DNA of 64,000 nucleotides from an uncultured Chthonomonadaceae bacterium (GTDB lineage Bacteria > Armatimonadota > Chthonomonadetes > Chthonomonadales > Chthonomonadaceae): positions 11,809 through 75,808 of the forward strand of contig CAWIEK010000008.1 of assembly GCA_963835065.1 (NCBI GenBank), read 5' to 3'. The position numbers and the translations under genes were made by a program. The stretch's first letter is position 1; every line of letters begins with the position of its first letter. Positions 2,509 through 63,842 of this stretch are shown here, in pieces. The notes under the pieces were generated by a model that was not told where the DNA came from, did no database searches, and saw only the letters and a list, made by a program, of their open reading frames with translations.

Positions 2509-2537
2509 AGTGGATAGTGGATAGTTCGTAGTGGATA
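2509..2537 (+). repeat. Heptamer tandem repeat arm (AGTGGAT-type)
   Basis: agtggat agtggat agttcgt agtggat. Confidence 0.75.
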
Positions 2538-2597
2538 AAAGAGGCAGGAACGGCGAGTTTTCAACGCCACGCCGCTCAGGGAATACAAATAGGAGTT

Positions 2598-2640
2598 CCC
2601 CTTCTTCCAACTTTGGGAGAAGGGGTCAGGGGTTGAGGGC
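2598..2640. repeat. CCCTCTCCC/GGGAGAGGG REP-like palindrome
   Basis: cccttcttccaactttgggagaaggggtcaggggttgagggc, similar to 35221-35260. Confidence 0.7.
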
Positions 2641-2676
2641 TACCTGGGAGCCGTAACAAGGATTGAGGACGCGCTC

Positions 2677-3225
2677 ATGGCAAAAACGAACGATACCGCG
2701 CGCTACGAGACGCTGATATTGCCGCACCTGAACGCCGCCTATAATCTGGCGCGCTGGATGACGCGCAACGATCAGGATGCCGAGGACGTGACACAGGAAG
2801 CCTGCCTGCGCGCCTGCAAGTTCTTCGACAGTTTTCGTGGCGGGGATAGCCGCGCCTGGCTGCTGCGCATCGTACGCAATACCTGCTACACCTGGCTGCA
2901 GCAAAACCGGGCGCATGAGCTGACGCTTTCATTTCACGAGGAGACATTCGACCTGCCGCATGAGGCGTATAACCCGGAGACGATTGTCCTTCAGCAGGCG
3001 GACGCGGAGCAGATACGGCGGGAAATGGAAGCCTTGCCGGTAGAGTTTCGGGAGGTACTGATTTTGCGGGAACTGGAAGATTTTTCGTATCGCGAGATCG
3101 CGCAGATCGCCGACATTCCGCTTGGAACGGTCATGTCGCGCCTTGCGCGGGGCCGCAAGCGACTTCAGGAAGCGCTGGGAGGTTCAGCCTTCCTCGACGG
3201 CAGGGAGGCGCGGCATGAACTGTAA
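2677..3225 (+). CDS. ECF RNA polymerase sigma factor
   Basis: DAEDVTQEA region 2; SYREIAQIADIPLGTVMSRLARGR region 4. Confidence 0.95.
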   Translation: MAKTNDTARYETLILPHLNAAYNLARWMTRNDQDAEDVTQEACLRACKFFDSFRGGDSRAWLLRIVRNTCYTWLQQNRAHELTLSFHEETFDLPHEAYNPETIVLQQADAEQIRREMEALPVEFREVLILRELEDFSYREIAQIADIPLGTVMSRLARGRKRLQEALGGSAFLDGREARHEL

Positions 3226-5233: not shown

Positions 5234-5235
<2 letters not shown>

Positions 5236-5347
5236 GTGTTCAGGTGTTCAGGTATTCGGGTATTCGGGTATTCAGGCCGGAGCATTGTCTCCTGACGACT
5301 GCCAATGTACCGTCCAACCACTTGAACACCTGAACACCGAACACCTG
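5234..5347. repeat. Inverted 8-mer tandem-repeat hairpin filling the pseB-pseC gap
   Basis: (GGTGTTCA/GGTATTCG)n left arm, (TGAACACC)n right arm. Confidence 0.85.
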
Positions 5348-5351
5348 ACCT

Positions 5352-6507
5352 ATGATTCCTTACAGCCGCCAAACCATAGACGACGACGACATACAGGCCG
5401 TGACGGACGCGCTGCGCTCCGATTGGCTGACGACCGGGCCGCGCGTGGACGCTTTTGAACAGGCGTTTGCAGCCCAGGTGGGCGCAAAATACGCGGTTGC
5501 GGTTGCCAACGGAACGGCGGGTCTGCATCTGGCGTGTCTGGCTGCGGGCATCGGGACGGGGTCGGAATGTATCACCACGCCGATTACGTTTGCGGCGACA
5601 GCGAACGCCGCGCTGTACGTGGGCAGCCGCCCCGTCTTTGCCGACGTGTGCGCGGATACCGTCAACCTCGATCCCGAACAAGCGGCGCGGCACATCACGC
5701 CCAAAACGCGCGCCCTGCTGCCCGTGCATTTCGCGGGACACGCCTGCGACATGCCTTCCTTTCATTCTCTGGCGCAGCGGCATGGCCTGACGATTATCGA
5801 AGACGCCTGCCACGCTCTGGGCGCGACAATGCCGGACGGAATCGTTGGCGATTGCCGTTACAGCGATATGACTGTGTTCAGCACCCATGCGGTCAAGGCG
5901 ATTGCAACGGGCGAAGGCGGCGTTGTTACGACGAACAATCCGCAGTCTTAATGACAAATTGCGCCTGCTGCGTTCACACGGCATCACCCGCGACCTGGAA
6001 AAGTTGCAGGAGAATGAGGGCGGCTGGTACTACGAGATGCAGGCATTGGGGTTCAATTACCGCCTGAGCGACATCAACTGCGCCCTGGGACACAGCCAGT
6101 TAAAGAAACTCGGCGCGTTCATAGCCCGTCGGCGCGAAATCGCCGCGCAGTATGACCGCGCTTTCGCGCCCATTCCCAATCTGCGCCCGCTTGCGCAGCG
6201 CCCCGGCCATGCGTCCGCCTATCATCTGTATGTCGTTCGGTTCACCGGAGCCGATGCGAGAGGGCGGCGATGGGCATTCGAGCGTTTGCGGGAAGCCGGG
6301 TTGGGCGTCAATGTACATTACATCCCCGTGTACCGCCAGCCTTACTATCGCGACACATTGGGCTATCCACAAAACGACTGCCCCCACGCCGAAGCCTACT
6401 ACCGCGAAGCCATCTCCATCCCCCTCTACCCCGCCATGACCGATGCGCAGGCAGCGACAGTAATTGCCACTGTGCAGCGCGTCGCCTGCGAATTGACCGC
6501 CATTTGA
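5352..6507 (+). CDS. pseC: UDP-4-amino-4,6-dideoxy-N-acetyl-altrosamine transaminase (frameshift near 5945, probable sequencing error)
   Basis: MIPYSRQTID, IIEDACHALG, FSTHAVKAIATGEGG; continues in ORF 5887-6507 (LGFNYRLSD, VNVHYIPV). Confidence 0.88.
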
Positions 6508-11267: not shown

Positions 11268-11477
11268 GTTTGCTCTCCATGCCCTTCGATTAGCTTCTGG
11301 TTCAACAAGTTCAACACGTTCCCTTCGAATTCAGTTCGCAAAGGTTGATTCTGCCTGCAAGGTCGCTTTTCCTGCTTAAAACTGCCGCGCCCGGCGAAAA
11401 CGTTGTCCGGGCGCAAGCGAAACCCTGGGCCAATGGCGCTGCGGACGCAAGAACTGCCGGCTTCTTAACGCCACAGT

Positions 11478-11640
11478 GTAACTTTTCACCACCAAGACAC
11501 CAAGAACACCAAGAGAAAACAGGCCACAATAGACACAGAATCGAAGTCGGTTTCGTTTTCTCCTGCAATTTCACAACGTTTCCCCTCCCGTTCTTCTCGT
11601 TTTGCTTGGTGTTCTTGGCGTCTTGGTGGTGAAAAGTTAC
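11478..11640. mobile_element. MITE-like element with 36-bp terminal inverted repeats built of CACCAAGA-type units
   Basis: TIRs 11478-11513 and 11605-11640 (1 mismatch); second copy at 49005-49146. Confidence 0.8.
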
Positions 11641-17479: not shown

Positions 17480-18703
17480 TTACTTGCTTTTCGCTGTTGA
17501 CTTCGCGCCTGCTTGCGCTTTTTTCACGATTGATGCAGCTTTGGGCGCGGGAGGCTTGGGCAGTTCGGGAGGAAGGAGGTTGTTGAGGAGTTTGTTGCCG
17601 TCTACGTCCCATACGTACAGGATGCCGTCACGCCCGCCGCCTGCTGCCGTTTTGCCATCCGGGCTGAGAGCGACCGCGTACATGGGCTGCGCCAGATTTT
17701 TAAATTCGCGGACACGCCCGCCGTCCGGGTTCCAGATGATCACGGATTTGTCCATGCCGCACGTCACAAAGCGCCTGCCGTCTGCGGAACCGCTCAGGGC
17801 GAATACGCCGCCATCGTGCGCCCCGACTGTGCGGAAATGGTAGCCGTTGTAGGTTTTCTTTTTGGTGTCGTAGCCGACGCCCCACCAGTACAATTTGCCG
17901 TCCAGGCTGCTGCCGACAAACTGGCTGTCATTGATAAACGCCAATCCCGTTACGCCGCCCTCGCTTTGATCGAAGTTGACGACCGTGTGGTTGGTCTTCA
18001 TGTCCCATACTTTGACGATGCGATCCAGTCCCGCCGTAATAAAAATGGTGTCGGGCTTGGGCGAAAACGCGACGGCCTGTACGCGCCCATTATGCTCGTC
18101 CAGCACAATGCCGTTCGCGTCCGGGAAAGACGAGAAATAGCGTACTTTGTTGTCGTCCGCGCCGCATAGCAAGGCCTTGCCGTCCTTGCGAAACGCCAGC
18201 GCCTCAATCACATCTTTTTGCGCCGGGTAAGCGCGGGGCTTGTCGGCAGAATTCATATCCCACGTCAGCGCCAATCCGTTGCGCCCCGACAGTCCGCAGC
18301 CAATCGCCAGCGTCAAGCCGTCCGGGCTGAACGCCAGTGACCGTACCGCGTCTTCCACCTGCCGCGTCAAACCAACCGGCTGCCACGTTTGGGTATCATA
18401 CACCACCACCTGCCCCTGCGTTCCCACCGCCAGTTTCTTCCCGTCCGGGCTGTACGCCAGCGCGGAAACCGCCGCAACCGGATGGTCAAGGACAATCGGC
18501 GCGGGGACAACAGGAACAGGAGCCGCCGCAACGGGGGGCGCGGCCTGCGCAGCGGCGGGAACGGAGTTCACCACAGAGGCACAGAGACACAGAGGGGTCA
18601 CAGAGAAGACAAGGAGACGGGGAGACAAGGAGAAGAGGAGAGAAGGAAGCCTCCTGAGCCGTAACCGGCCCTGAGTACCCTTCAAACTGCACCTCGCCTC
18701 CAT
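17480..18703 (-). CDS. Secreted WD40-repeat protein (start uncertain)
   Basis: Multiple ALAYSPDG/AFSPDG blades, VKVWD, LYVWD. Confidence 0.9.
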   Translation of the reverse strand: MEARCSLKGTQGRLRLRRLPSLLFSLSPRLLVFSVTPLCLCASVVNSVPAAAQAAPPVAAAPVPVVPAPIVLDHPVAAVSALAYSPDGKKLAVGTQGQVVVYDTQTWQPVGLTRQVEDAVRSLAFSPDGLTLAIGCGLSGRNGLALTWDMNSADKPRAYPAQKDVIEALAFRKDGKALLCGADDNKVRYFSSFPDANGIVLDEHNGRVQAVAFSPKPDTIFITAGLDRIVKVWDMKTNHTVVNFDQSEGGVTGLAFINDSQFVGSSLDGKLYWWGVGYDTKKKTYNGYHFRTVGAHDGGVFALSGSADGRRFVTCGMDKSVIIWNPDGGRVREFKNLAQPMYAVALSPDGKTAAGGGRDGILYVWDVDGNKLLNNLLPPELPKPPAPKAASIVKKAQAGAKSTAKSK

Positions 18704-18766
18704 ATCTCTCATTTCCCATCTTCTCATCTCTGTGACCCCTCTGTGTCTCTGTGCCTCTGTGGTGAA
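18567..18766. repeat. 200-bp hairpin element with perfect 40-bp inverted arms (CACAGAGR 8-mers)
   Basis: 18567-18606 is the exact reverse complement of 18727-18766. Confidence 0.92.
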
Positions 18767-18774
18767 ATCGTATT

Positions 18775-20122: not shown

Positions 20123-20133
20123 GGAAGCCTCCA

Positions 20134-20591
20134 GAAGTAGTCAGTAGTCAGTAGTCAGTAGTCAGTAGATTCGGGTTGCGCGCTTGTTTCCAGCATTGCC
20201 CGCATGTAAGCGTTCAACATTCTGCTGATTTCTGTGACAGACTGCATAAGTTCGTTTGTATCGCCGTAGTTCAAGTCTCTGGAAAGGATTAGATAGTAAC
20301 GACATTCTTCCAGAGACGCTTGCGCGATGTTGTAAAACCGCGCTTTTTCTGTCTTGCTTTGTCGTCTATAGCCTTCTGCAATGTTTGCCGGAACCGAAAC
20401 CGCAGCCCGTCTCAATTGCGAAGTTAAGCCATATAGTTCATGCTTTGGAAACTGAACCGTCAGTTGATAAATTGCCAGTACCCACCGATGCGCCTTCTGC
20501 CAAACCGCCAAGTCCTCAAAAGTCTTCGTCATAGCGCCTCTCCCACAGGTCACAATCTACTGACTACTGACTACTGTCTTCTGACTACTTC
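20134..20591. mobile_element. Cassette: four-helix-bundle gene enclosed by 38-bp inverted (GTAGTCA)n arms
   Basis: Arms 20134-20171 and 20554-20591, 36/38 complementary. Confidence 0.8.
20155..20532 (-). CDS. Four helix bundle protein (23S rRNA IVS-protein family)
   Basis: FEDLAVWQKAH, FPKHELYGLTSQLRRAAVSVPANIAEG, ASLEECRYYLILSRDL. Confidence 0.95.
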   Translation of the reverse strand: MTKTFEDLAVWQKAHRWVLAIYQLTVQFPKHELYGLTSQLRRAAVSVPANIAEGYRRQSKTEKARFYNIAQASLEECRYYLILSRDLNYGDTNELMQSVTEISRMLNAYMRAMLETSAQPESTDY

Positions 20592-20592
20592 C

Positions 20593-25430: not shown

Positions 25431-27227
25431 CTACTGGTTCGGGACGGCTCCCGCGCCATCATCGGCGGCGGGGGTGGACGCGCCCGCAGAAGCAGGCTTC
25501 GCGCCGGTTCTTCCGGCTCCCGCCGCAGCGGGAGCCGGCTTCGATTTGGGCGGGGCTGTGCCCACAATCACGACGGAGGGAATGGCGCGGTAGTGCGTGG
25601 TAATCGGTTCGCGCTTCACTTCCTGCCCGTTGTCCTTCACCACGCGATACCACGTCACGTCAATGCGCGGGTGTCCCGGCACTTTCACTTCGGTATGGCC
25701 GGCAGGGAGGCTTGGGTCATGCTGGGTTTCCGTGCCGAAATCGCCCTGAACGAATTTGCCGCGCGTCAGCGTGACCTCACGCCCCGGCGTCTTCTTGCCG
25801 TACACGCGGAACGTCAGCGAACCGTTGTGGCCGCGCCCGTAAATGTAAACCGGGGCGTCCGTGCTGTTCATAAACTTAAAGTCAATATCGCCATCAACCA
25901 CTGTCGCGTCCAGTCCCTGCGGCACATAATGGACGGGAAAAGCGTGGTGTGAGCGATCCACAATCTTCAAGTTGGACAGCAAAACCGAGTTAAACAAGGT
26001 CGTGGAAACCTGACATACGCCGCCGCCCACACCCGGCTTCAGTACGCCGCGCACGATTTCCGGGGCCGTTTTGAAGCCACATTCCAGGCTGCGCGGCCCG
26101 ACAGTTTTGTTGTAGGAGAACACTTCGCCGGGACGTAAAACCGTTCCATTGATGCGGCTGGCGGCAAGCGCGACATTGCTGTGCCGATTGGCCGTGCCGC
26201 CAATATCCGTCTGCTTCATACCCAACAGGCCATTGATCTGCCGAATGTCCTCGTAGGTGATGCTTGCGGGCGTTGCTTTCGCCGCCAGTTCCACTTCAAT
26301 AGGCTGCGAAGTATCTCCAACAGGGGGGTTGGCGGTTGGCAGTTGGTGATTGGTGGCTGGCGGCTGGTGATCGGTGATTGGTTTGGGCTGCCCCTCAGTC
26401 GTGTCGCTCCTGGGCGCAGCAGGAGTGGTAACGGAGCCATTCGCGCCCCCCGGTTTCTGATGCGCGTTCGGGTCCGCCGGAGCAGCATCCTCACTTTTCC
26501 CTTTTTCCTTTTCCCTTTTCCCTTCCTCGGTCTCCCCCTCTGATCCCTGTTCCCTGTTCCCTGTTCCCTGTTCCCTACCCTGCGTTGCGCCATTGAAACC
26601 GACCCATGCCTGCGTAATGGCGGTGGCGGAAGCGTTCACATCCACGCCCAGGCCAGGTTTGTCGTGGAGATAGGCCGTGATTTGCGTACCATCCAGTTTC
26701 AAGCGGGCGTTGCGGGGCTTGCGGTTCACCTGAAACGCGATCTGCCGGACATAAGCGCGTACCTGATTGTCGTCCATCGCCACGCGGGCGGGAACCAGAA
26801 TGGTTTTGCTGCCGGTCAGCGCATGGGACATTTGCGCCAACATGCCTTCGCGCCCCGCTTTGCTCACATCATCCAGCGTAGCGGGAATGTCGAAGCCGAG
26901 TTTCAGTTTACGCGCTGTTGTCGTCCACGTTTTGGGAACATGCGCGTCTTCGGCAAAGCGCAGTTTCAGTTCCACGTCCTGCCGCGCATTGCCCCATTGC
27001 TGCAGCAGCGTCCGCGCTTCCTCCAGGGTTTTGCCGCCCAACTTCAAATTGCCGACCTGTACGCCCGGCGCGATTTCGTTGTCGGGCACGCGCGCCCGCG
27101 CCCCAAGCAGGCCGACGCCCGCAACGGCAAACAGGGCCACCGGCGTCACGACATACAGGCGGCGCGGGCCGGCATAACGAACTTTCGGAGCGTTTTTGCT
27201 GGGAGAACTTTTAGATGTTGCTGACAC
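25431..27227 (-). CDS. VanW/YoaR family peptidoglycan-binding protein with in-frame repeat-derived insertion
   Basis: LRPGEVFSYNKTVGPR, GGGVCQVSTTLFN, HHAFPVHYVPQGLDATV; G5-like tail. Confidence 0.9.
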   Translation of the reverse strand: MSATSKSSPSKNAPKVRYAGPRRLYVVTPVALFAVAGVGLLGARARVPDNEIAPGVQVGNLKLGGKTLEEARTLLQQWGNARQDVELKLRFAEDAHVPKTWTTTARKLKLGFDIPATLDDVSKAGREGMLAQMSHALTGSKTILVPARVAMDDNQVRAYVRQIAFQVNRKPRNARLKLDGTQITAYLHDKPGLGVDVNASATAITQAWVGFNGATQGREQGTGNREQGSEGETEEGKREKEKGKSEDAAPADPNAHQKPGGANGSVTTPAAPRSDTTEGQPKPITDHQPPATNHQLPTANPPVGDTSQPIEVELAAKATPASITYEDIRQINGLLGMKQTDIGGTANRHSNVALAASRINGTVLRPGEVFSYNKTVGPRSLECGFKTAPEIVRGVLKPGVGGGVCQVSTTLFNSVLLSNLKIVDRSHHAFPVHYVPQGLDATVVDGDIDFKFMNSTDAPVYIYGRGHNGSLTFRVYGKKTPGREVTLTRGKFVQGDFGTETQHDPSLPAGHTEVKVPGHPRIDVTWYRVVKDNGQEVKREPITTHYRAIPSVVIVGTAPPKSKPAPAAAGAGRTGAKPASAGASTPAADDGAGAVPNQ

Positions 27228-32850: not shown

Positions 32851-32915
32851 ACGCGCTATTTCGCCCTGCTTTGCGCAGTTTCCTGCCGGGGGTTACGCAT
32901 CTACGCATCTACGTA

Positions 32916-32957
32916 CACCTGAACACCTGAACACCTGAACACCGAACACCGAATACC
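32916..32957 (-). repeat. (GGTGTTCA)n 8-mer arm downstream of cheA stop
   Basis: acacctga tandem units on + strand; same unit as 5234-5347. Confidence 0.8.
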
Positions 32958-32976
32958 GGCGTTTTCAGGGTAGGCT

Positions 32977-34956
32977 CTATGCCGCCTGCCGGTAAACAGT
33001 ATTGGATGTGCGCATACTTTGGATCAGCGCGGGCACATCCATAATCAAAGCCACGCGCCCGTCGCCCATAATTGTGGCTCCGGCGATGCCTTCCACCTTG
33101 CGGTAATTGGTTTCCAGGCTTTTGACGACCACCTGGCTCTGGCCGATGAGTTTATCCACGAGCAGCGCCACTTTCAGGCCGGCGTTTTCCACAATGACCA
33201 GCAAGCCGCGCGTGGGGTCGGTGACAAACGAGGCCGCGCCGAAAACCTGGTACAAGCGCATAATCGGCAGCGCCTCGCCCCGTACCAGCGCCACCTCGCG
33301 TTGGCCGGCGAGCATACGAATCTCGCCCGCTTTTGGCCGGATGCTTTCCACGATGCTTGTCAGGGGAAGCACGTACACTTCCTCGCCCACCAATACGGAC
33401 AGCCCTTCCAGAATCGCCATCGTCAGCGGCAGGCGGATGCGGAAGCGCGTACCGTGACCGGGCGTGGAAAGAAGGGTAATCGAGCCGCCGAGACTTTGCG
33501 CGGACTGCTTTACAATGTCCATGCCCACGCCGCGCCCGGACAAATCCGTCACCTGCGGAGCCGTGGAAAAGCCCGGATGAAAGATGAAGTTGTACAGCGT
33601 TTCGTCAGGCGGGGGCGGGTCGCTTTCCAACAGCAGGCCGCGCTCAATGGCTTTACGCAGGATGCGTTCGCCGTTCAGCCCACGCCCATCGTCCGACACT
33701 TCGATAACGATACTGCCCCCCTCATGGAAAGCGTTGAGCGCGATAATGCCCGTTTCGGCCTTGCCCGCGTCGCGCCGCTCTTCGGGCGTTTCCAGACCGT
33801 GATCCACGCTGTTGCGGATAAGATGCGTGAGCGGGTCGGCAATCGCTTCGATCACCGATTTGTCCAATTCCGTGTCTTCGCCGGACGTCCTCAGTTCAAC
33901 TTTCTTGCCGCAGATCGTCGCCAGATCATACACCAGGCGCGGAAAGCGGCCAAACGCATATTTGATGGGCAGCATCCGCACAGCCATCACGCGCTCCTGC
34001 AGTTCGCGGCTGGCGCGTTCCATTTCCGCCACCGCTTCGCGCAGGCGCGGCAGTTTCGCCATCGAAAAGTTCTGGACGACTTCGTTGAGCATGGACTGGT
34101 TGATAATCAACTCGCCCACCAGATTGATAAGTTTGTCTATTTTATCCGTCGCCACGCGCAGTGTTTGCGTTTCGCTTTTACCGGCAGGAACGCTTGCGCT
34201 AAGGGATGAGGGAGACACCGTAAGGGATGAGGGATAAGGGATGAGGGATGAGGGCTTCGCTTGCGTTTCCCCTTTGGCGACTGGAACGCTTACATCGAAG
34301 GCGTTTTTAGTGGAAGCGCTTACATCGAAGGCGCTTACATTAGCAGCGTTTTCATCCGAAGCAATTTCATCGAAAGCACGTGTCGGCGCAAGGGTTGGCG
34401 CGGGTGTCGGCGCGAAAAACTCCTCGAATGTTGTGGACGGAGCGGCGTCGGCGTCTGGTACAGCGGCAGGCTGCTCGTCCGGCGCTGACGCGGAACCAGT
34501 CTGTTCCACCAGCATCTGCGCGATTTCGGCGCGCAGGGCGTCCTCGTCCCACTCTTCTTCCACATAGCCCGTAAGCGCGATTACTTCTTCGATTTGAAAA
34601 ATCAGAGTTTCGGAAGCTTTGGCTGCCGCCGCCGCGCCCCGCGCCACCGCAAGCAGCGCTTTCAATTGATCCAGCGATTCCAGCAGCAAATGCGTGATTT
34701 GCGTATCTACCTGCGCTTTGCCGTTGCGCAGCAAGTCCAGCAGGGTTTCGAGGCTGTGGGTGAAGCGCGCCATATCCGCAAAACCGAATGTGGCGCTGCC
34801 GCCTTTGATGGAGTGCGCGCAGCGAAAAATGGTGTTGAGCAGTTCCGGCTCATTGGGCGCGGACGCCAGCCGCAGCAGCAGTTTCTCCAGGTCCGCCAGA
34901 ATGTCTTCGGTTTCTTCAAAAAACGTCTGCTGGAATACGCTCATATCAATGTTCAT
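32977..34956 (-). CDS. cheA: Chemotaxis histidine kinase
   Basis: FRCAHSIKGG (HPt), HLIRNSVDHG, DDGRG, SGRGVGMD, CheW domain. Confidence 0.95.
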   Translation of the reverse strand: MNIDMSVFQQTFFEETEDILADLEKLLLRLASAPNEPELLNTIFRCAHSIKGGSATFGFADMARFTHSLETLLDLLRNGKAQVDTQITHLLLESLDQLKALLAVARGAAAAAKASETLIFQIEEVIALTGYVEEEWDEDALRAEIAQMLVEQTGSASAPDEQPAAVPDADAAPSTTFEEFFAPTPAPTLAPTRAFDEIASDENAANVSAFDVSASTKNAFDVSVPVAKGETQAKPSSLIPYPSSLTVSPSSLSASVPAGKSETQTLRVATDKIDKLINLVGELIINQSMLNEVVQNFSMAKLPRLREAVAEMERASRELQERVMAVRMLPIKYAFGRFPRLVYDLATICGKKVELRTSGEDTELDKSVIEAIADPLTHLIRNSVDHGLETPEERRDAGKAETGIIALNAFHEGGSIVIEVSDDGRGLNGERILRKAIERGLLLESDPPPPDETLYNFIFHPGFSTAPQVTDLSGRGVGMDIVKQSAQSLGGSITLLSTPGHGTRFRIRLPLTMAILEGLSVLVGEEVYVLPLTSIVESIRPKAGEIRMLAGQREVALVRGEALPIMRLYQVFGAASFVTDPTRGLLVIVENAGLKVALLVDKLIGQSQVVVKSLETNYRKVEGIAGATIMGDGRVALIMDVPALIQSMRTSNTVYRQAA

Positions 34957-35274: not shown

Positions 35275-36480
35275 TTATTGCGCGGGAAGCGTAAACCAAA
35301 ACGTGCTGCCTTTGCCGTACTCGCTTTGCACCTGTACGCTGCCGCCGTGCATTTCGACGATGTGCTTCACGATGGACAGCCCCAGTCCCGTTCCCCCCGA
35401 TTGGCGCGAACGCGCTTTGTCCACGCGGTAAAAACGCTCGAATAAGCGCGGCACGTCCTGGCTGAGAACGCCGATACCCGTATCTTTCACATAGACACCG
35501 GCGCGGCTGTCCCTGATTTCCGTCCACACGGTGATTTTGCCGCCGCTTGGCGTGTACTTGATGGCATTGTCTACGAGATTGACCAGTACCTGCTCGATTT
35601 GATCGCGGTTAGCGTTGATTTCAATATGCGGGCCACCCGTGTAAGCCAGCTGCAGATTGGATTTTTCCGCCTGTGGGCTTAGTCGTTCAATCACGTCGCG
35701 TACAAGCGTGGTGAGCGCGAAGGGTTCACGTTCGGGAGCCTGTGACTCGGCGCGCGACAGGATGAGCAGGTCTTCCAGAATCCGCGTCAGGCGCTCCACT
35801 TCGCCCACAATGATGTTGACAAAGCGATTGGCGACTTCGCTATCGTACAGCGCGCCGTCCTGAAGGGTTTCCGCCATTGCGCGTATGGAGGCAAGGGGCG
35901 TTCGCAATTCGTGGGAAACATTCGCCACAAAATCCCGGCGCACCGTTTCCAGTCGGCGTAATTCGGTGACATCCTCAAACAGCAGCAGAAAGCAGGGGTC
36001 GGGGCCGGATTCCTCAAACGTGGGAAGACGCCCGTTGGGGTCGGCTATGTCGGAAAGGAGCAGGGGAATCACGCGAGTTCGCAGGGTGCGCCCGCCGATT
36101 TCAGCGCGCTGAATCTCCTGCACCTGCGCCGCGCCGGTTTCCTGCGCCCGGTTCACGAGCGCCCCGATTTCGTAGGAAAGCGTCGCTTCCAGCAGCGTTT
36201 TGCCGACAAGCGCATTCCCGCGCAGGCTCAACAGGCGTGTCGCCGCCGCATTGCCTTCCAAAATGCGTTTTTGCGCATCGGCAATGAGGACGCCGGTATC
36301 CAACTGCTCCAGCAGCAGGCGATACACTGCCGCGCTGATGCCATTGCCTTCCTGAACACTGTTCAAATTACCAACCTGTTCACTATAAACGCCCGCTTTA
36401 TCAGAGCCGAGTCGGGAACGACCCGTCTGCTCCACTGCGGTCAATCGGTCTGCGACCGGGCCACGCTTCGTCCTCACCAA
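35275..36480 (-). CDS. phoR: PAS sensor histidine kinase, PhoR-like
   Basis: LRRLETVRRDFVANVSHELRTPL, FERFYRVDKARSR, GGTGLGL. Confidence 0.75.
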   Translation of the reverse strand: MVRTKRGPVADRLTAVEQTGRSRLGSDKAGVYSEQVGNLNSVQEGNGISAAVYRLLLEQLDTGVLIADAQKRILEGNAAATRLLSLRGNALVGKTLLEATLSYEIGALVNRAQETGAAQVQEIQRAEIGGRTLRTRVIPLLLSDIADPNGRLPTFEESGPDPCFLLLFEDVTELRRLETVRRDFVANVSHELRTPLASIRAMAETLQDGALYDSEVANRFVNIIVGEVERLTRILEDLLILSRAESQAPEREPFALTTLVRDVIERLSPQAEKSNLQLAYTGGPHIEINANRDQIEQVLVNLVDNAIKYTPSGGKITVWTEIRDSRAGVYVKDTGIGVLSQDVPRLFERFYRVDKARSRQSGGTGLGLSIVKHIVEMHGGSVQVQSEYGKGSTFWFTLPAQ

Positions 36481-36497
36481 TCACCCGCCACCCGCCA

Positions 36498-37172
36498 CTA
36501 ACCACTAAATTTATAGCCGACGCCGCGCACGGTCAGCAGGCGGCGGGGATGCGAAGGATCGTCTTCCACTTTTTCGCGCAGCCAGCGGATATGCACGTCA
36601 ACCGTGCGCTCCTCAACGTAGGCTTCCGCGCCCCAAACCCGATCCAGCAGCACTTGCCGCGAAAACACCTGCCCCGGATGCGTGGCAAGGAAGCGCAGCA
36701 ATTCAAATTCTTTGGGTGACAGCGTGACCGGGCGGGTTCCCACGCGAACCTCGAACCGGGTCGGGTCAATGGTCAGATTGCCGGCCTGTATCGGCTGTTC
36801 GGTCAGTTCCTGCGCATTCGTGCGGCGCAGAACGCCCTTCACCCGCGCCATCAGTTCGCGCATGTTGAACGGCTTGGTGACGTAATCATCCGCGCCCAAT
36901 TCCAGGCCGACAACGCGATCTGAGGAATCGGCGCGGGCCGTCAGCATGATAATGGGAACGCTGTTCTGCTTGCGCAGCATCCGGCACACATCAAAACCAC
37001 TGGCGGAAGGCAGCATTACATCTAATATAATCAGGTCCGGCTGATCGCGTTTGGCGATCTCCAGGCATTGCTCCGCGTCGGCGGCGGTCAGCACGCGGAA
37101 GCCTTCCTTTTTCAAATTGTAGGCGACAGCTTCTACAATCGGCAATTCGTCATCCACGACGAGAACTTTCAT
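36498..37172 (-). CDS. OmpR-family response regulator, PhoB/PhoP-like
   Basis: VLVVDDE, DLIILDVMLP, GADDYVTKPF, RTVDVHIRWLREK. Confidence 0.9.
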   Translation of the reverse strand: MKVLVVDDELPIVEAVAYNLKKEGFRVLTAADAEQCLEIAKRDQPDLIILDVMLPSASGFDVCRMLRKQNSVPIIMLTARADSSDRVVGLELGADDYVTKPFNMRELMARVKGVLRRTNAQELTEQPIQAGNLTIDPTRFEVRVGTRPVTLSPKEFELLRFLATHPGQVFSRQVLLDRVWGAEAYVEERTVDVHIRWLREKVEDDPSHPRRLLTVRGVGYKFSG

Positions 37173-40070: not shown

Positions 40071-40195
40071 AGTTGATAGTTGATAGTTGATAGTTGATAG
40101 TACAATCCGCTGGCGAGTAGTCCAATTCTCAACTCATATCTACGATAAAATGGTGTAGGTAAAGCGCATCTAATCAACTATCAACTATCAACTAT
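40071..40195. repeat. Inverted (AGTTGAT)n/(ATCAACT)n hairpin between kinase and dut
   Basis: 4 units at 40071-40098, 3 units at 40173-40193. Confidence 0.85.
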
Positions 40196-41931
40196 TTACT
40201 TTCTTCCGCCACCGGCTGCTTGCGCGGGAAGCGGAACCAGAACGTGGAGCCTTTGCCGTGTCCGTCGCTTTCGGGCATCAGTTTGCCGTGATGCCCTTTG
40301 GCGATGGCGGTGACGAGGTACAGGCCAATGCCCGTTCCCTGCTTGCCCCGCGCGCTTCGCGCCCGCTCGAACAGCCTGCCGACGCGCTTCAATTCGGTTT
40401 CCGACAGCCCCAACCCTTGATCCTTGATGCCAACCCGGATCATTTCCGGCTGTTCGTCCGTGGCAGGCTCTATGCGCCCGATTACGCGCACTTCGCCGCC
40501 GTCCGGGGCGTATTTGATGGCGTTGGAAAGCAGGTTGTGCAGCACGTTCTGGAACAAGTCCGGGTCGGTTTCCGCGATGATATGTTCGGGTTCAAAGTCC
40601 ACAACAAACTGGTGCTTGTCCGTGCGTCCCTTCTGCATGGTCAGCGCGTCTTCCACCGACTTTTGCAGGTCAACTTCGGCCCAGTTGAATTCCAGGCCCG
40701 CGCCGCGCTCAATGCGGGACACATTGAGCAGGTCGTTGATAAGGCGGCTCAGGCGGTCTACGTTTTCATCAATGATGGTGTAGAACTCGCGCCGGTCCTC
40801 CCGCATGTACCATTCTTCATTCTCATCGTCGAGCAGGGTGCGAATGAAGCCTTTCATGGGCGTGAGCGGGGTGCGCAGTTCGTGCGACACGATGGAAACG
40901 AATTCCGTTTTCATGCGCTCCACAGCGCGAAGGTCGGTGATGTCGTTGAAAATGACCACGATACCGAACGGCTGATTGTCGTCGTCGCGCACATTGGCGG
41001 CGTGAACCTGATAAACGTAGGTGATGCCTTCCTCGTCCGTAACGGTGATTTCATCCGGCTTGCGCGGTTCTTCTTCTTCGTCATCACTTGGCGGCTTGGG
41101 GTTATTCGCTTCGTCAATTTTGCGGTTCAGAATGGCAAGGCACTGCTCATGCTCGATCACATCCGAGAAGGGCTTGTGCAGGGGATCGCTGCCGTCTTTG
41201 ACGCCGAACATGGCACGCGCCTGCGCGTTTATCTGGCTGATGCGGCCATGCTGATTAATTAAAATCAGCCCCGCCGTCAGGCTTTCCAGCGTATGTACCA
41301 GTTTTTGCTTTTCCTGAACCACTTCCTGATACATCTGCGCGTTGGCGATAACCGCAGCCGCGTTGCGCGACAGGCGTTCCAGCAGGCGCACATCCTCTTC
41401 GATGAACGCGCCGCCATAACGCTTGTTGAAGCAATGCAAAACGCCGATACGCATTTGTTCGACAATATGGTTTTCATCGTCGCGCCGCTCCACCACGAGG
41501 GGCACGGTCACGCCGTTGCGGATGCGCAGGCCGGGCAGATGCTCCACCAGCGCGCGGGGATCGTCACTCGCGTCCTGCAAGATGGATGCCTTGCCGGACA
41601 TAAACACTTCCCCGGAAATGCCCCGTTCCGCTTCGATGCGGTAGGATTTTACTTCCAGATCGGTCATGCCGAAGGCGGGGGCGCGGGCGACAAGTTCATC
41701 GGCTTCCCGGTCGCGCACCATAATCACGCATTTTTCGGCCTGCACGATCATGGCCGTGCGCTGCACAAGCCGGCGCAGGGTGTCTTCAAATTCGCTGATG
41801 GCGCTGGGAAGTTCGCCGGACTCGGCGGCTCCGGCACGGGAGCGCTCCAGAGCGTCTATCTTTTCTTTTTGCTCGGCCAGTTGCCGATGCAGGCTTTCTA
41901 TCTCTTTTTTGAGAGTCTCGTTATCTTCCAT
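40192..41931 (-). CDS. Cytoplasmic GAF-PAS sensor histidine kinase
   Basis: SHELRTPL, NLLSNAIKY, DQGLG, GTGIGL. Confidence 0.9.
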   Translation of the reverse strand: MEDNETLKKEIESLHRQLAEQKEKIDALERSRAGAAESGELPSAISEFEDTLRRLVQRTAMIVQAEKCVIMVRDREADELVARAPAFGMTDLEVKSYRIEAERGISGEVFMSGKASILQDASDDPRALVEHLPGLRIRNGVTVPLVVERRDDENHIVEQMRIGVLHCFNKRYGGAFIEEDVRLLERLSRNAAAVIANAQMYQEVVQEKQKLVHTLESLTAGLILINQHGRISQINAQARAMFGVKDGSDPLHKPFSDVIEHEQCLAILNRKIDEANNPKPPSDDEEEEPRKPDEITVTDEEGITYVYQVHAANVRDDDNQPFGIVVIFNDITDLRAVERMKTEFVSIVSHELRTPLTPMKGFIRTLLDDENEEWYMREDRREFYTIIDENVDRLSRLINDLLNVSRIERGAGLEFNWAEVDLQKSVEDALTMQKGRTDKHQFVVDFEPEHIIAETDPDLFQNVLHNLLSNAIKYAPDGGEVRVIGRIEPATDEQPEMIRVGIKDQGLGLSETELKRVGRLFERARSARGKQGTGIGLYLVTAIAKGHHGKLMPESDGHGKGSTFWFRFPRKQPVAEESK

Positions 41932-44537: not shown

Positions 44538-44572
44538 GGAGAAGTTGAGGGTTGAGGGTTGAGAGTTAAGGC

Positions 44573-48251: not shown

Positions 48252-49001
48252 ATGTCTGGACATTCCAAATGGCATAACATTCGCCTGCGCAAGGGAGCGC
48301 AGGACGCCAAACGCGGCAACCTGTTCACCAAACTCGCCAAAGAAATCATCATGGCCGCCAAAAGCGGCGGTGGCAACCCCGATAACAACCTGCGCCTGCG
48401 CCTCGCCATCCAAAAGGCGCGCGAAAACTCCATGCCGCAGGACAACATCAAGCGCAGCATCCAGCGCGGCACGGGCGAAGTGGAAGGCGCGGTTTTTGAA
48501 GAAGCTGTTTATGAGGGCTATGGGCCGGGCGGCGTGGCCGTGCTTGTGGATGTGGCGACCGACAACAAAAACCGCACCGTCGCCAACATTCGCAACATTT
48601 TTAATAAGAATGGCGGGCGCATGGGCGAGTCGGGATCGGTTTCGTACCGCTTCCGTCCTATCGGCATCATCACCGTTGCCCGCGCCGCCGCCGAAGAGGA
48701 AGCCGTTTTCAATGCCGCCATCGAAGCAGGCGCGGAAGACGTGCGCGCTGATGAAGACAACTACGAGGTTATCACGCAACCCGAAGATTTCGGGGCCGTG
48801 CGGCAGGCGATTGAAGCCGCCAATATCCCGATTGCCAATGCCGAGTACACGATGGAGCCGACGGACACGGTTCAGCTTGACAGCAAGGACGCCGCGTTGC
48901 TGTTGCGCCTGATGGACCGGTTGGAAGACGATGAGGACGTGCAAAACGTCCACGCCAACTTCGACATTCCCGAAGACGTGCTGGAAGAAGCAAGCGCATA
49001 A
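48252..49001 (+). CDS. yebC: YebC/PmpR family protein
   Basis: MSGHSKWHNI, YEGYGPGG, TDNKNRT, EDDEDVQNV. Confidence 0.95.
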   Translation: MSGHSKWHNIRLRKGAQDAKRGNLFTKLAKEIIMAAKSGGGNPDNNLRLRLAIQKARENSMPQDNIKRSIQRGTGEVEGAVFEEAVYEGYGPGGVAVLVDVATDNKNRTVANIRNIFNKNGGRMGESGSVSYRFRPIGIITVARAAAEEEAVFNAAIEAGAEDVRADEDNYEVITQPEDFGAVRQAIEAANIPIANAEYTMEPTDTVQLDSKDAALLLRLMDRLEDDEDVQNVHANFDIPEDVLEEASA

Positions 49002-49004
49002 TTA

Positions 49005-49146
49005 TTCACCACCAAGACACCAAGAACACCAAGTAAAGCAGGCAATAGGAACGGATTCAGAACGCGCAAATCTTTCAATATCTGCTGCAATTTTATAACG
49101 TCATTTTTCTCGTTCTTCTTGGTGTTCTTGGCGTCTTGGTGGTGAA
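49005..49146. mobile_element. Second copy of CACCAAGA-type MITE-like element
   Basis: 29-bp TIRs (1 mismatch) identical to those at 11478-11640. Confidence 0.8.
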
Positions 49147-49248
49147 GAGTTACCCCTGCGCGTTGATTCTCGTGTCTTTTGCGGCTTGTTTCCTTCCTGC
49201 TGTGCGCAGATAACGCAATCGCGCTTCTATTTGTTTTTCGCGGAGTTG

Positions 49249-52592: not shown

Positions 52593-52606
52593 AGCGAGTT
52601 CACTAA

Positions 52607-53755: not shown

Positions 53756-53758
53756 TAA

Positions 53759-53836: not shown

Positions 53837-53868
53837 TAAGCGAAGGGACGCCGATAGTTCGCAGTTCC

Positions 53869-53906
53869 TGCATCCCTATCAACTACAAACTATCAACTAT
53901 CAACTA
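53869..53906 (-). repeat. (AGTTGAT)n arm directly after bcp stop
   Basis: atcaact units on + strand. Confidence 0.8.
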
Positions 53907-53907
53907 T

Positions 53908-54442: not shown

Positions 54443-55488
54443 CTAATTCTCTGTGGTGAGGGACTGTTCCTGCTCAATGCGCTGCCGCTCCTGCTGCAAG
54501 GCAGTCCGCAGTTCTGTCTTCGGTTGGCAGATGGAGTTGGTAGCGGGAAGCAAACACTTGCGCGTTGGCATTGTGGAGGGTATAGCGAACAACCGCGTCG
54601 TTTTTATCGGTGCAGAGGATCAGGCCGACGGGCGGGTTTTCCCCTCGCGCATTTCTTCGGCCTCGTAGTAGCCGGTGTAAAAGAGCATTTGCCCAACGTC
54701 CTGATGCGAGAGAGCGCCCACTTTGAGGTCAATCAGCACGAAGCAGCGCAGGGTACGGTGATAAAACACGAGGTCAATGTAGAAGTTATCGCCGTCAACC
54801 GTGATGCGCTTTTGGCGGGCAACAAAGAAGAAGTCGCGTCCAAGTTCCAGCAAAAACTCTTGCAGCTGATCCATAAGCGCCTGTTCCAGATCGGTTTCCA
54901 GCAGGCGATGGGATTGCGGCAGGCCGGTAAACTCCAGAACAACCGGGTCTTTAATCAGGTCGGACGGCTGAAAAATCTCGTTGCCCTGTTCCGCCAGTTG
55001 CAGCAGCCCGGCTTTGTCGCGTGACAGGGCAAGCCGTTCATACAGCAGGGAAGCAATCTGCCGTTCCAACTCCCGCGTAGACCAGTTGGCTTTGACACAT
55101 TCCGCCTCATAAAAACTCCGCGCTTCCGGCTTTTCAACGCGTCCGCAGCAAGCGGTAATGCGTCCAACTCAATTCTTGACGCAGTGCGTCACGAATTGGG
55201 AACGCATTGTAGAACGTCCGCATGTCCGACAAATTGGATCGGTCAAACCCTTTGCCAAACTCCTGCGTCAACTGCTTAGACAGATTTTGCAGCAGGCTTT
55301 TACCATAATCCGCCCGCGCCTGCCCGCGCTGTTCTTCCTCAACGATCTCGCGCCCAATCTCCCAATACGCGCGTACCATCTCGGCATTGACCGCCTGCAA
55401 CGCCTGATGACGTCCGCGCTTGCAGAATGTCGCGAATACGTTGGTAAACCGGATCAAAATTGTCGTCTGTCTTGGATAGGTTTGACAT
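54443..55488 (-). CDS. DUF1016/YhcG PD-(D/E)xK nuclease-family protein (several frameshifts)
   Basis: YWEIGREIVEEEQ, LSWTHY, IKDPVVLEF, FLLELG, FYIDLVFYH, IDLK. Confidence 0.88.
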
Positions 55489-59970: not shown

Positions 59971-60030
59971 CTCTACACCCTCCTACAGTACAGCTACTAC
60001 ATCTACATGCAACCGACGTTCCTAAACAGT

Positions 60031-63000
60031 TTACCTGCTTACGAGCAAACGTCCATTAGTTGAACTATCTAACGCGCGTTGGTTTGACGACGAGGAAGCC
60101 GCCTCCGTCCATGTAGATTGTCTTCCAAGCAGGCGTTCTACATCCTGCTTGAAGGCATCAGAATACTCAGCGAGTAAATCCGTGCATACTTCGTAGATGT
60201 GTTCACCGTCAGGAACTCGAAGATGAACTGGCATTGCATTCCCGTTTCCTCTATGTCGCAGAATGGTGTCATGTACCATTTGAAGTGTGTTACGCCTTGA
60301 AGCGTCAACCTGAACAACAATTTTGCGTGGGCCGACGTTCGCGTTCGCGCCCCCACTGCCCAACGCCGTAATGGTTTCGGCCAGTATTTCCACCGTGACG
60401 CCGCCCTCATCGTCCTCGCGCACCCGTTCCCGGTGATTGGCCCGCCCGCCGAGCAGGACAATTTTGTCTTTTTCCAGCAGATGCCCCGCTGTGGCGTATG
60501 TGGACGGGAACATGGTGCAGGCAACGGTTCCGGTCATGTCTTCCAAAGTGAAGAAGGCCATCGGTTCGCCGCTTTTTTTGGACGTGAACGGCTTGATACT
60601 CGTGATAATGCCGCCAATCGTCACTTCCGTCCGATCCGCTTTTTCCGGCAGTTCGGACACGCGGATTGCGTCTCGCCTTTTCAAAGCGCGGCATAAACGC
60701 TTGCAGGGGATGGTCGGAAATGTACAGGCCGAGCAGGTCGCGCTCGAAGCCGAGCAATTGCGCGGACGGGTAATCGGGGATATTGGGGATGGGAATGGTT
60801 TCCACCGTCGGCCCCACATCCGCATCGTCGCCGAACATATCCGACAGCGACGCCTGCCCGTTCTTCTTGTCCTTTTGCGACCGCTGCGCCGCCTGACAGC
60901 ACGGGTCCAGGGCTTCGATCAGGGCGCGGCGGTTGGTATGGCCGGGGAGGGACGCGAACGCGCCGCTTTGTATCAGCGCTTCCATCGTTCCCCGCGACAC
61001 GCTGCCCGTCTCGCTGCCCATCACGCGCTGGCAGAAATCGGCCAGACTGGCAAACGCCCCGCCCTCTTCCCGAACCCGCAAAATCACTTCCACCGCGGCT
61101 CGTCCGACGCTCTTGATGGCGGCAAGGCCGAAGCGAATAGATTGCGAGGGTGTCGGGTGTCGGGTGTCGGGTGTAGATATTGTCCGTTGTAAGATTTCCC
61201 CCGACACCCGATACCCGATACCCTACACCCTTCCACCGTAAAGTCCGCCCCACTGGAATTAATGTCCGGCGGGAGGACGGGAATGCCCATGCGCTTGCAC
61301 TCGTCCATGCACGTTACGAGTTTGTCGGATTTTTCGATGAAGCAGGCCAGCAGGGCGGACATGTATTCGACGGGGTAGTTGGCCTTTAGATAGGCGGTTT
61401 GATACGCCACCATCGCGTAGCAGACGGCGTGGGCTTTGTTGAAGGCGTAACCGGCGAAGGGTTCCATCAGGTCGAAGATTTCGTTGGCCTTCTTTTCCGA
61501 AACGCCGTTTTCCCTTGCGCCGCGCAAAAAGTTTTCGCGCTCCTGCACCATCACTTCTTTTTTCTTTTTGCCCATGGCGCGGCGCAGCAGGTCGGCCTGT
61601 CCCAGCGTGTAGCCGGAAATAATCTGCGCGATCTGCATCACCTGATCCTGATACACGATGACGCCATACGTTTCGTCCAGCAGTTCCTTTAGTTTTTCGT
61701 GCGGGTATTCGATCTTTTCCAGCCCGTGCTTACACCGGACGAAGCGGGGAATATGCGCCATCGGGCCGGGGCGGTACAGGGCCACCATAGCCGCCACGTC
61801 GCGCACACTCGTCGGCTTCAACTCCTGAACGTACCGGCGCATTTGCGGCGATTCCAACTGGAACACGCCCACGCACTCGCCGTTGCCCAAGAGTTCGTAG
61901 GTTTTGCGCACGTCTTCGCCGTCGCCTTCGAGCGGCAGTTGCGCACATCCAGTTTTTTGCCGGTCGTCTGCTCCACGTTTTTCAGCGCCTGTCCCAAAAT
62001 GGTCAGGTTAATCAGCCCCAAAAAGTCCATTTTCAGCAGGCCGATTTTTTCCAGCATGTTCGCGTTATACTGCGTCACGCAGCCGCCGTCCGCGCTCCGC
62101 GTGAGCGGCGTGTACTCCACAAGCGGGTTGTGCGAGATGATAACGCCTGCGGCGTGAACGCTGGCGTGGCGCGAAATGCCTTCCAAGCGTTTCGCGGTAT
62201 CAATCAATTTGCGGGCGGCGGGGTCGCGCACATAAGCGTTCTTGAATTCCGGGTTGGCGTCCAGCGTCTTGTCAATGGTCATGCCGACGGGGATCGTCGG
62301 GATCATCTTGCACAATTTGTCCACGTCGCCGGCGGGATAGCCCAACGCCTTTCCCGCGTCTTTCAGTACGGCGCGGGCGGCAAGGGTTCCGAACGTGATG
62401 ATCTGCGCGACGCGGGCTTCTTCGGGAATGTCCTGATTGGGGCTGTACTTTTTGGTGACGTAATCAATCACTTCCCCCCGGCGCGTGTCCTCAAAATCCA
62501 TATCCACATCGGGCATCTGAACGCGCTCCGGGTTCAGAAACCGCTCAAACGTCAGGCCATACTCAACCGGGTCAATGTCGGTAATGTCCACGAGGTAGAG
62601 ACAAGGCAGCCAGCAGCGGAACCGCGCACGCCGTAGTAAATGCCCTTCTTGGCGGCAAACTGCGCAAAGTCGCGCACGATGAGAATATACTGCGCGAACC
62701 CGGTTGTCTGGATAATGCCGAGTTCATAATTCATGCGGTCAATCACGCGCTGCGGGCGGGTTGCCATTGTACTTTTTAAGCAGCCCTTCTTCGGACAGCT
62801 TGGTGAGATACTCAAGCGGCGTGTATTCGGCGGGGAAACCGGGGGAGGGCATGGGCGCGCGCCCGAATTCCAGTTCTACATGGCAGCGTTCCGCGATTCC
62901 CAATGTGTTTTCGATGCAGCCGCGGGTGCAGCTTGTGAAACAAATCCTTCATCTGCTGCGATGATTTCAGATAAAACTCCTGCGTGGCGTATTTCAGGCG

Positions 63001-63713
63001 ATCCGTATCCGTGACAACCGAACCCGTCCCAATGCACAGCAAAATATCATGCGCGTCGGCGTCCGGCCCGGTGAGATAATGCACATCGTTGGAGCAAATC
63101 ACGGGCAGGCCGAGTTCGCGCGAAATTTTGAGCAGTTGGGTATTGGAGTGTTCCTGTTCGGGCAGGTTGTGGTTCTGAATCTCTACATAATAGTTGTCGC
63201 GCCCGAACAGATCGCCATAGTACGCGCAGGCGTCGCGGGCGGAATCGTAGTCGCCGCGCAGCAGGTGCGAGTTGATTTCGCTGCCCAGACAGGCGGTGGT
63301 GGCGATCAGGCCCTCGTGGTACTTTTCCAGCAGTTCGCGGTCAATGCGGGGCTTGTAGTAAAAGCCTTCCAGCGCGGCGATGGTGGTGAGTTTGAGCAGG
63401 TTCTTGTAGCCTTCGTTGTTGCGGGCCAGCAGCACCATGTGGTACGCGGACTGGTCCAGCTTGGCCTCTTTTTTCGCCGATGCCGGGGCGCGACATACGC
63501 CTCCACGCCCAAAATCGGCTTCACGCCCTTGTCCTTGCATTTGCCGTAGAAATCCGCCATGCCGTACATGACGCCGTGATCGGTCAGGGCAAGGGCGGGC
63601 ATTTCCATTTCCGCCGCGCGGCTGATCAGATGCCCGATGCGGTTGGCTCCGTCGAGGAGAGAGAATTCGGAGTGAACATGAAGGTGAACAAAATCGCTGC
63701 TGGTATCGCTCAT
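60031..63713 (-). CDS. dnaE: DNA polymerase III alpha subunit (multiple frameshifts, probable sequencing errors)
   Basis: FVHLHVHSEFSLLDG, RGSAAG, FERFLNPER, PDVDMDF, HAAGV, KMDFLGL, YAFNKAH, IRFGLAAIK, OB fold. Confidence 0.95.
61148..61230. repeat. 83-nt inverted (GGGTGTC)n hairpin inserted inside dnaE
   Basis: mRNA-strand termini GGGTGT...ACACCC; lies between codons for FTVE and SQSIRFGL. Confidence 0.9.
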
Positions 63714-63733
63714 GGTTGCCTCGGAAGGAAGTT

Positions 63734-63842
63734 AGGTTTCAGGTATCAGGTTTCAGGTATCAGGGGAGAACGCTGCTGCATTCGTCTCATCTATAAGGAA
63801 GAAGAGCCTTTTCTGACACCTGAAACCTGACACCTGAAACCT
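63734..63842. repeat. Inverted (AGGTTTC/AGGTATC)n hairpin in dnaE leader
   Basis: Left arm 63734-63763, right arm 63813-63842. Confidence 0.85.

Follow-up and report, generated by a model that had tools for sequence, protein, structure and literature searches.

What puts short tandem repeats of seven or eight bases, often as the two facing arms of a hairpin, at one gene junction after another, and how does the unit at a given site come to change? The question is raised by a 64,000-nucleotide (nt) stretch of DNA from an uncultured Chthonomonadaceae bacterium, here called the window, which covers positions 11809-75808 of contig C8 in an assembly of 8.0 Mb and 57% G+C (genome G000). A preliminary description of the window had listed such loci and suggested that a cassette encoding a small four-helix-bundle protein is the gene-carrying form of a repeat-generating system. 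We followed the elements through the whole genome and into relatives, of which the nearest named ones by DnaE are Chthonomonadaceae genomes at 82-86% identity; two runs, X1 and X2, provided metagenomic DNA contigs of relatives. The G000 assembly carries indel errors, the window dnaE being broken into six frame segments, and the gene calls (6,618 open reading frames, ORFs, from a codon model trained for this analysis) are approximate.

All units and coordinates named in the preliminary description were found again within the window, with arrays at 2509, 5234/5319, 20136/20557, 25287, 32915, 40071/40173, 44544, 53876, 61148/61200 and 63734/63813. The excess of period-7/8 repeats over shuffled sequence is strong across the genome. 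Tandem Repeats Finder (TRF) reports 2,557, 697 and 360 arrays of period 7, 8 and 9, where a codon-block shuffle gives 2, 4 and 16, and period 7 exceeds period 6 by 35-fold; the arrays group into 3,265 arms at 2,188 loci. A stricter array scan finds 1,772 period-7 arrays against 10 of period 6, with none in a block shuffle; it recovered only 7 elements in the window, and its counts are lower bounds. Units are not locus-specific, as had been supposed, the most frequent one accounting for 240 arrays across G000. A scan of the window against Rfam matched no family.

These arrays share one architecture. Among adjacent TRF arms genome-wide, the G-rich arm precedes the C-rich arm 969 times and follows it 40 times, and when complementary pairs are scored within each of 31 unit families the same strand is 5' in 289 of 289. 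The fixed polarity claimed for paired arms is thus a property of the genome; its wording as 'G-rich first' applies generally and fails for the CACCAAGAA family (11490 and 49010 in the window), whose purine-rich 5' arm has more C than G. Arms are 25-35 nt long in 1,450 of 1,768 arrays and exceed 40 nt in only 40, and the 278 elements with defined ends have a median loop of 57 nt and a median total of 119 nt. Direct repeats of 2-8 nt at these 278 elements are within the shuffle range, giving no sign of target-site duplication. Long elements built of 8/9-mers are nested hairpins, in which the outer layers pair best as judged by eye. Five paired loci of the window fold at z -5.5 to -11.8, a stability reached by none of 200 shuffles; for two single arms folding is weak (z -0.35 and -2.4). 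Between genes, 317 of 398 arm pairs are complementary (39-53 in shuffled pairings), whereas inside ORFs only 16 of 129 are, below the shuffled 27-35, so that the earlier statement that the two arms of a locus match is correct for intergenic loci and incorrect for coding ones. Intergenic pairs lie between co-oriented genes in 331 of 398 cases, compared with 4,780 of 6,547 for all junctions. True single arms within -10 to +20 nt of a stop codon place the G-type strand on the mRNA 114 times against 13, as the preliminary description had it from a handful of loci, and in 86 of 219 cases the stop codon is in register with the pyrimidine-purine-purine triplet of the unit, against an expectation of one in seven. 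The repeat-armed loci are one real, large, polarised family with a common architecture.

The sites of this family persist while their contents change. We compared 49 element loci that are duplicated within G000: 40 are the same, one differs in unit number and eight are rewritten, all eight being among the 19 loci with 92-98.5% flank identity and none among the 30 with at least 99%. Three of the eight were scored as having no array; read by eye, they are hairpins of a different unit in degenerate form. Within segments that are 96-99.5% identical, alignment is lost precisely at the element. Between contigs C61 and C36, alignments of 99.5% and 98.5% are interrupted only there; between C37 and C25, a gene-less AGGCATT hairpin faces a gene cassette of AACAGGG type, flanked on one side by 2 kb at 95.7% and on the other by 7.8 kb at 99.1% identity. 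The same is seen between species. Of the junctions compared between G000 and its relative G002, 39 are filled in both, 36 and 13 in one only and 96 in neither (odds ratio 8, p 5e-9). Another unit is present at 30 of the 39, and the nine with a common unit compare with 1.0 expected. Turnover of units at sites, as envisaged earlier, is borne out by these duplicates (8 of 19) and junctions (30 of 39). Beside these loci, a dispersed multi-copy element (G000:C15:124394, C2:97782, C71:16694 and others) has in some copies, and lacks in others, a single AGTTGAT arm just upstream of a motif resembling a ribosome site, so that the genome contains many copies of either kind, filled and empty.

A gene can also be present or absent at a site. 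The window cassette (20134..20591) lies between the stop codon of the upstream gene and the ribosome site of the next one; contigs from X1 and X2 join position 20132 to 20597 with five letters between, no target duplication being evident at this empty site, and the cassette is also absent in G001, G002 and G011. G000 has three PF05635 genes and three GxxExxY genes, all within inverted arrays with the purine-rich arm first. That the four-helix-bundle cassette is the gene-carrying form accords with the bracketing of all three PF05635 genes and with gene-less and gene-bearing alleles at one site. From the phylum, 30 homologues were fetched, and among the 29 with sufficient flank complementary arms enclose 20, compared with 8.5% of mismatched controls; all 20 of these loci are G-first. 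The window protein matches TIGR02436, and its predicted model has four helices and no strands. The closest solved structures are XCC0516 (2GSC) and BT_0352, followed weakly by Avd (4DWL; TM about 0.7, 11% identity), whose profile scores 33 bits on the window protein against a cut-off of 80. For the closest relative of known structure, each entry contains five chains, and the accessible text of PMC4990558 calls this protein a homopentamer. An Atlas search returned PF05635 clusters only, and a weak search for fusions of the protein gave 20 longer hits, mostly singletons with unrelated domains, and no partner enzyme. We saw no transposase, by eye, among the ORFs inside 63 long 5'-to-3' arm pairs, and no sigma-70-like promoter was found in 20000-20800. 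Two further arm pairs enclose unusual contents. At G000:C24:144567-145024 (L418), the stretch of about 390 nt between AGGCATT arms forms a single long imperfect palindrome, the whole folding at -260 kcal/mol, and at G000:C50:144748-146074 (L415) nested 8/9-mer arms bracket ORFs of 74 and 161 amino acids (aa); this ORF pair, antitoxin-like and nucleotidyltransferase-like by eye, is possibly captured cargo.

The elements of the window are as follows; a strand is given where one is assigned.

2509..2537, + strand: single 5'-type arm with unit AGTGGAT, between divergently oriented genes
5234..5348: paired 8-mer arms GGTRTTCR, beginning in the stop of a PseB-like gene, before a PseC-like gene (z -5.45)
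11467..11640: paired CACCAAGA(A) arms, of the type that brackets GxxExxY genes elsewhere in G000
18564..18769: nested paired arms, CACAGAGR outer and GAGGAGA-type inner
20134..20591: gene-bearing cassette, AGTAGTC arms at 20134-20171 and 20554-20591
20155..20532, - strand: four-helix-bundle gene, 125 aa, PF05635 / TIGR02436
25287..25316, + strand: single 5'-type arm AGTTGAT, 3 nt past the stop of an LCP-family gene
26327..26576, - strand: in-frame coding mosaic in a VanW-like ORF, two 5'-type modules and then a non-matching 3'-type module
32915..32958, - strand: single 5'-type 8-mer arm after the cheA stop
34200..34254, - strand: in-frame 3'-type array within CheA
36476..36508, - strand: short degenerate arm at a response-regulator / kinase junction
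40071..40201: paired AGTTGAT arms after a histidine kinase stop (z -7.17)
44544..44571, + strand: single 5'-type arm GAGGGTT after the stop of a C39-like peptidase
48999..49156: paired CACCAAGAA arms after the yebC stop (z -8.42)
53870..53907, - strand: single 5'-type arm AGTTGAT after the bcp stop
61148..61230, - strand: paired GGGTGTC arms within dnaE, one base off frame in the G000 assembly
63734..63842: paired AGGTWTC/AGGTGTC arms ending about 20 nt ahead of the dnaE start (z -11.78)

Several of these sites vary in their turn. A second assembly copy of the site at 5234 (contig C20) has 7-mer arms instead of the 8-mers, the left arm of the element at 11467..11640 is missing from a related contig, and the site at 18564..18769 holds another unit in G001 and in G002. 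The loop at 48999 is 71% like that at 11467. Elsewhere in the window, the PseC-like aminotransferase gene (5352-6507) is split by one frameshift, probably an assembly error, and an IS5-family transposase segment (52604-53837) and a 256-nt stretch in the YhcG/DUF1016 region (54588-54843) are each absent in a related X1 contig. Other dispersed palindromes (23163-23233, 23262-23315, 42202-42318, 35202-35272 and 37471-37541) have no heptamer period and include a perfect inverted repeat of 25 nt that has GTAG close to its ends, which we take to be REP-like (repetitive extragenic palindromic).

What is carried from site to site is clearest in the AGTAGTC family, in which 39 of 51 pairs, at unrelated loci, enclose the family's own loop and thereby show copying of the whole element. 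The arms of this family are 99% pure, and the same variant occurs in both arms 55 times, compared with 32 in within-family shuffles. Its loops have a median nearest-neighbour identity of 72% and reach 85% or more in only 3 of 51; those of five other families are close to the shuffle level. Loops at 17 sites swapped between species resemble one another no more than controls do, which fits whole replacement. Three candidate rules were rejected. Sense-strand insertion was not seen, the orientation of AGTAGTC loops relative to the mRNA being random (17 to 16), nor was adenine-biased mutagenesis, adenine being the best-kept loop base (conservation of the consensus base over 39 aligned loops: A 0.78, T 0.75, G 0.72, C 0.70). 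Loop retention does not hold as a general rule, only 1 of the 17 swapped sites ranking under 0.05 and only one of six same-site allele comparisons, C61/C36, beating the library.

The family is not confined to gene junctions, and its copies in coding sequence and in ribosomal RNA (rRNA) went unrecognised in the earlier survey of the window. In G000, 279 elements lie at least 40 codons from both ends of an ORF, and in the translation of coding elements charged modules come first and others, STINYQL for example, after them. Of the coding sites that could be mapped to 800 kb of the congener G002, 18 of 25 also hold a periodic insert, on which ground we judge the element-bearing ORFs to be real genes; in 400 kb of G001 the figure is one of five. 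Where orthologues have flanks that are 85-99% identical, the modules that they hold at a given residue differ and are in frame (42 mapped sites, five of them frameshifted in the relative and some matches being paralogues). In a comparison that bears on intron-like removal from mRNA, seven elements classed as outside ORFs map within an ORF of a relative, five of these reading through in one frame and two being interrupted. In DnaE, the loop that receives the insert measures 10 aa in 18 of 28 relatives. G011, G021 and G023 have open inserts there that derive from the repeats; in a wider survey of mostly distant taxa, 148 of 160 loops are at most 13 aa, three are open and longer than 20 aa, and five did not match. 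As a separate observation, the three assembly copies of dnaE in G000 (window 60031-63713; G000:C23:27584-35492) are all interrupted at the hairpin. In two of them the frame is off by one base; the other is in frame with two TGA codons, otherwise aligning in a single frame over residues 116-1092; a complementary hairpin at C44:16680 also contains an in-frame TGA. The dnaE interruptions may be due to assembly error, to a pseudogene or to removal at the RNA level.

Both 23S rRNA genes of G000 have three gene-less heptamer inserts each, at Rfam positions ~334, ~1217 and ~1898. In E. coli numbering the second lies at 1160-1186, presumably helix 45, and the third at 1865-1886, presumably helix 68. 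The unit at the second site is a different one in each of G000, G001 and G002, with unchanged polarity; at the third site eight of nine relatives have a short plain helix, and G001 has a non-periodic 147-nt hairpin. The inserts are too short for a PF05635 ORF, and the three PF05635 cassettes all lie outside rRNA. As stem-loops in place of a 23S helix tip, the rRNA copies, and these only, classify as intervening sequences (IVSs). Judged by sequence, their anatomy is that of the IVS treated in PMC4990558, which in the text available to us describes tandem heptamers 5' of the S23p ORF in Coxiella and cleavage of the IVS stem by RNase III at the first heptamer.

Does the four-helix-bundle gene go with the repeats? 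A correlation between repeat count and gene copy number, as had been predicted, is not seen: there are three genes for about 2,200 loci, and a rank test gives p 0.07. The gene is present in six of eight pattern-positive genomes of the bacterial family and in two of 16 others (p 0.005, the kin not being independent, and the patterns being built from G000 units, with other units missed). Sampled without regard to unit, over 25-60 kb per genome and more for G001 and G002, 5 of the 11 genomes with the gene contain arrays, as do 2 of the 12 without it (p 0.07). Possession of the gene does not suffice for repeats, and the gene's copy number does not scale with the repeat load. We found no match to RVT_1 in G015 or in G023, which is repeat-rich and 97% complete, and the two reverse transcriptases (RTs) of G000, one group-II-like and one retron-like, are not beside a cassette. 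They lie at G000:C49:681660 (L031) and G000:C50:52695 (L032), and the ORF that follows the group-II-like RT is Cas1-like by eye.

The arms have a fixed order, there is no target duplication, sites have filled and empty alleles, and different units occupy the same site. We put at about evens the explanation that a single family of repeat-armed elements of ~120 bases, with a larger gene-bearing form, spreads by site-directed overwriting of DNA; its members are likely selfish elements that overwrite their own sites. Overwriting would swap a tolerant gap, or an older element, for a different member of the family, and the replacement would be a short-tract, conversion-like exchange confined to the element. 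Fold-back (template-switch) correction, which is known from the literature on quasi-palindromes, would keep the arms mirror-perfect. Selection would sort complementary hairpins to positions after stops and to rRNA helix tips, and would leave stop-free, mostly non-complementary mosaics in protein loops. In the least certain step, the pentameric four-helix-bundle protein might bind about one heptamer per subunit and assist the exchange, from which a period of 7 and a ceiling near five units per arm would follow. A stronger form, which we think possible though doubtful, is a system free of transposase and RT in which the pentamer counts heptamers on single-stranded arms and drives the short-tract overwriting. 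If it is true, thousands of sites, including hundreds of protein loops and the rRNA tips, are continually refilled, and both the 23S IVSs and the excess of heptamer repeats in bacteria are products of such a system.

Several observations weigh against overwriting with the help of this protein. The duplicated loci may be co-assembled strains, and the reuse of sites could in part be inheritance, given the nine common units at 39 junctions where 1.0 is expected; reuse was not seen in comparison with G001 (2/20/4/23, p 0.68). At C61/C36 the loop survives a change of both arms (score 59, the library maximum being 34), which fits arm-only rewriting and is left unexplained by whole-element replacement. 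If copying is recent, the few near-identical loops mean that donors are external or copying is error-prone, and a quick turnover sits badly with this scarcity. Only 2 of 24 protein pairs with more than 65% identity have a common unit, so that any binding cannot be unit-specific. Among gene-positive relatives, 6 of 11 are without a period-7/8 array in the ~60 kb sampled, and G001 and G015 have arrays with no gene detected. The four-helix-bundle protein is a candidate without known catalytic activity, no enzyme has been pinpointed, and making or moving repeats stays a candidate role for it.

Other explanations account for parts of the picture. Hairpins might be domesticated RNA-processing signals, maintained for their cleavage by RNase III or for stabilising or segmenting operon mRNAs, their sequence being free to turn over and the gene a passenger. 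Complementary intergenic pairs (317/398) close to stops and mostly between co-oriented genes (331/398), the persistence of sites across species, and the Coxiella cleavage reported in the accessible part of PMC4990558 are as this would predict. It leaves the 279 in-frame coding elements, mostly non-complementary, unaccounted for, as well as the clean empty alleles and the exchange of units, and most sampled relatives have no arrays; we regard it as unlikely on its own, and it can be combined with overwriting. Mobility might be dispensed with altogether if slippage expanded an array in place and fold-back correction built the second arm. We consider this improbable. The lack of target duplication, arms that are 99% pure while loops diverge, the retained loop at C61/C36 and the single change of unit number between duplicates all suit it, but it is already strained by the AGTAGTC loop family at 39 unrelated loci and offers no account of a whole gene appearing at a site, of the polarity of 289 to 0, of the 35-fold preference for period 7 over 6 or of the sharp ceiling in arm length.

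Two further explanations are given less weight. In the manner of a diversity-generating retroelement (DGR), the protein might, like Avd, recruit an RT, and error-prone copies of element RNA would overwrite other sites. Diverged loops beside pure arms and the similarity in fold to Avd (4DWL) point this way, the profile match being weak and below the cut-off; G023 and G015 lack RVT_1, the RTs of G000 are not beside the cassette, adenine is the best-kept base (0.78) and loop orientation is random to the mRNA. A DGR-type process is thereby largely refuted, and we rate such retro-conversion as very unlikely. It is hardly to be expected, finally, that a telomerase-like activity adds G-rich repeats to both 3' ends of a break before the ends are joined. 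This would predict the G-then-C polarity, and compound and non-matching arms do occur in ORFs; family-specific loops and whole genes between arms, variants mirrored in both arms, nested hairpins that by eye pair best in their outer layers, and the lack of a candidate RT speak against it.

Three open questions come together in this genome: the over-representation of heptamers in bacteria, the origin of 23S IVSs and the role of PF05635. In G000 the same elements occupy rRNA, operon junctions and protein loops, single sites occur as filled, empty and swapped alleles, and the genome supplies defined donors, recipient sites and a candidate protein for tests of mobility and binding. The family further suggests a rapid supply of variable peptide inserts for hundreds of proteins, DnaE included.

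Compared with known systems, the family works like an IVS or a REPIN-type selfish hairpin, yet falls outside the definitions of REPIN/RAYT (REP doublets and their tyrosine transposases), MITEs (miniature transposable elements with inverted repeats), Rickettsia palindromic elements and DGRs. It has in common with REPINs, as covered by the available text of PMC3116915, hairpin doublets in hundreds of copies and few gene-bearing loci. It differs in carrying no tyrosine transposase, in arms that are tandem arrays without a conserved end motif, and in a unit that does not track protein relatedness; its matching arms enclose PF05635 or GxxExxY and no RAYT, a RAYT acting in trans not having been searched for genome-wide. 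MITEs are set apart by target-site duplication, of which 278 elements here give no sign above shuffle, and DGRs by Avd (33 bits against 80), an RT beside the cassette and an adenine bias. The Rickettsia palindromic elements, known to us through part of a review (PMC10969869), are likewise dispersed repeats in frame within unrelated proteins; they amount to 44 insertions in all against 279 deep coding elements in G000, where the coding copies are mostly non-palindromic (16 of 129 complementary) and the modules vary between orthologues. A small gene flanked by its own dispersed hairpin repeats is also found in the NTS repeats with SsnA, which acts on recombination and provides a working model for short-tract exchange (from the accessible sections of PMC11893778). 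SsnA is a GIY-YIG nuclease with co-evolving repeat specificity, whereas PF05635 is an all-helical bundle without known activity. The 23S IVSs of Coxiella and Leptospira, in the part of PMC4990558 available, have the helix-tip stem-loop and the same protein family (S23p/PF05635); in G000 the rRNA copies are ORF-less, the gene-bearing copies are in operons and about 2,200 related loci occupy mRNA junctions and ORFs.

Heptamer simple repeats, such as the cyanobacterial STRR, share the period of 7, a length of about four units, a bias of strand at stops and at starts, the inverted pairs and occasional in-frame peptides. For the GGGAATC unit of Xanthomonas, polarity, four-unit length and post-stop position are already published: the available text of PMC4692102 gives a preference for four units, 70-75 inverted pairs, and the G strand just past stops with the C strand ahead of starts. 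The Beggiatoaceae TAACTGA repeat, to the extent that PMC4679880 was accessible, is one unit before starts and is in frame in some ORFs. Each of these two accounts, in the parts available, deals with one unit per genome as a G-quadruplex or regulatory site and leaves the helix-bundle gene unmentioned. Within the literature searched, outside of which lay most subscription journals and supplements, nothing was found that ties PF05635 to genome-wide heptamer hairpins or reports exchange of units at the same site. G000, in contrast to the heptamer simple repeats, has 31 families with one polarity, most of whose units are incapable of forming a quadruplex, and swaps them at fixed sites.

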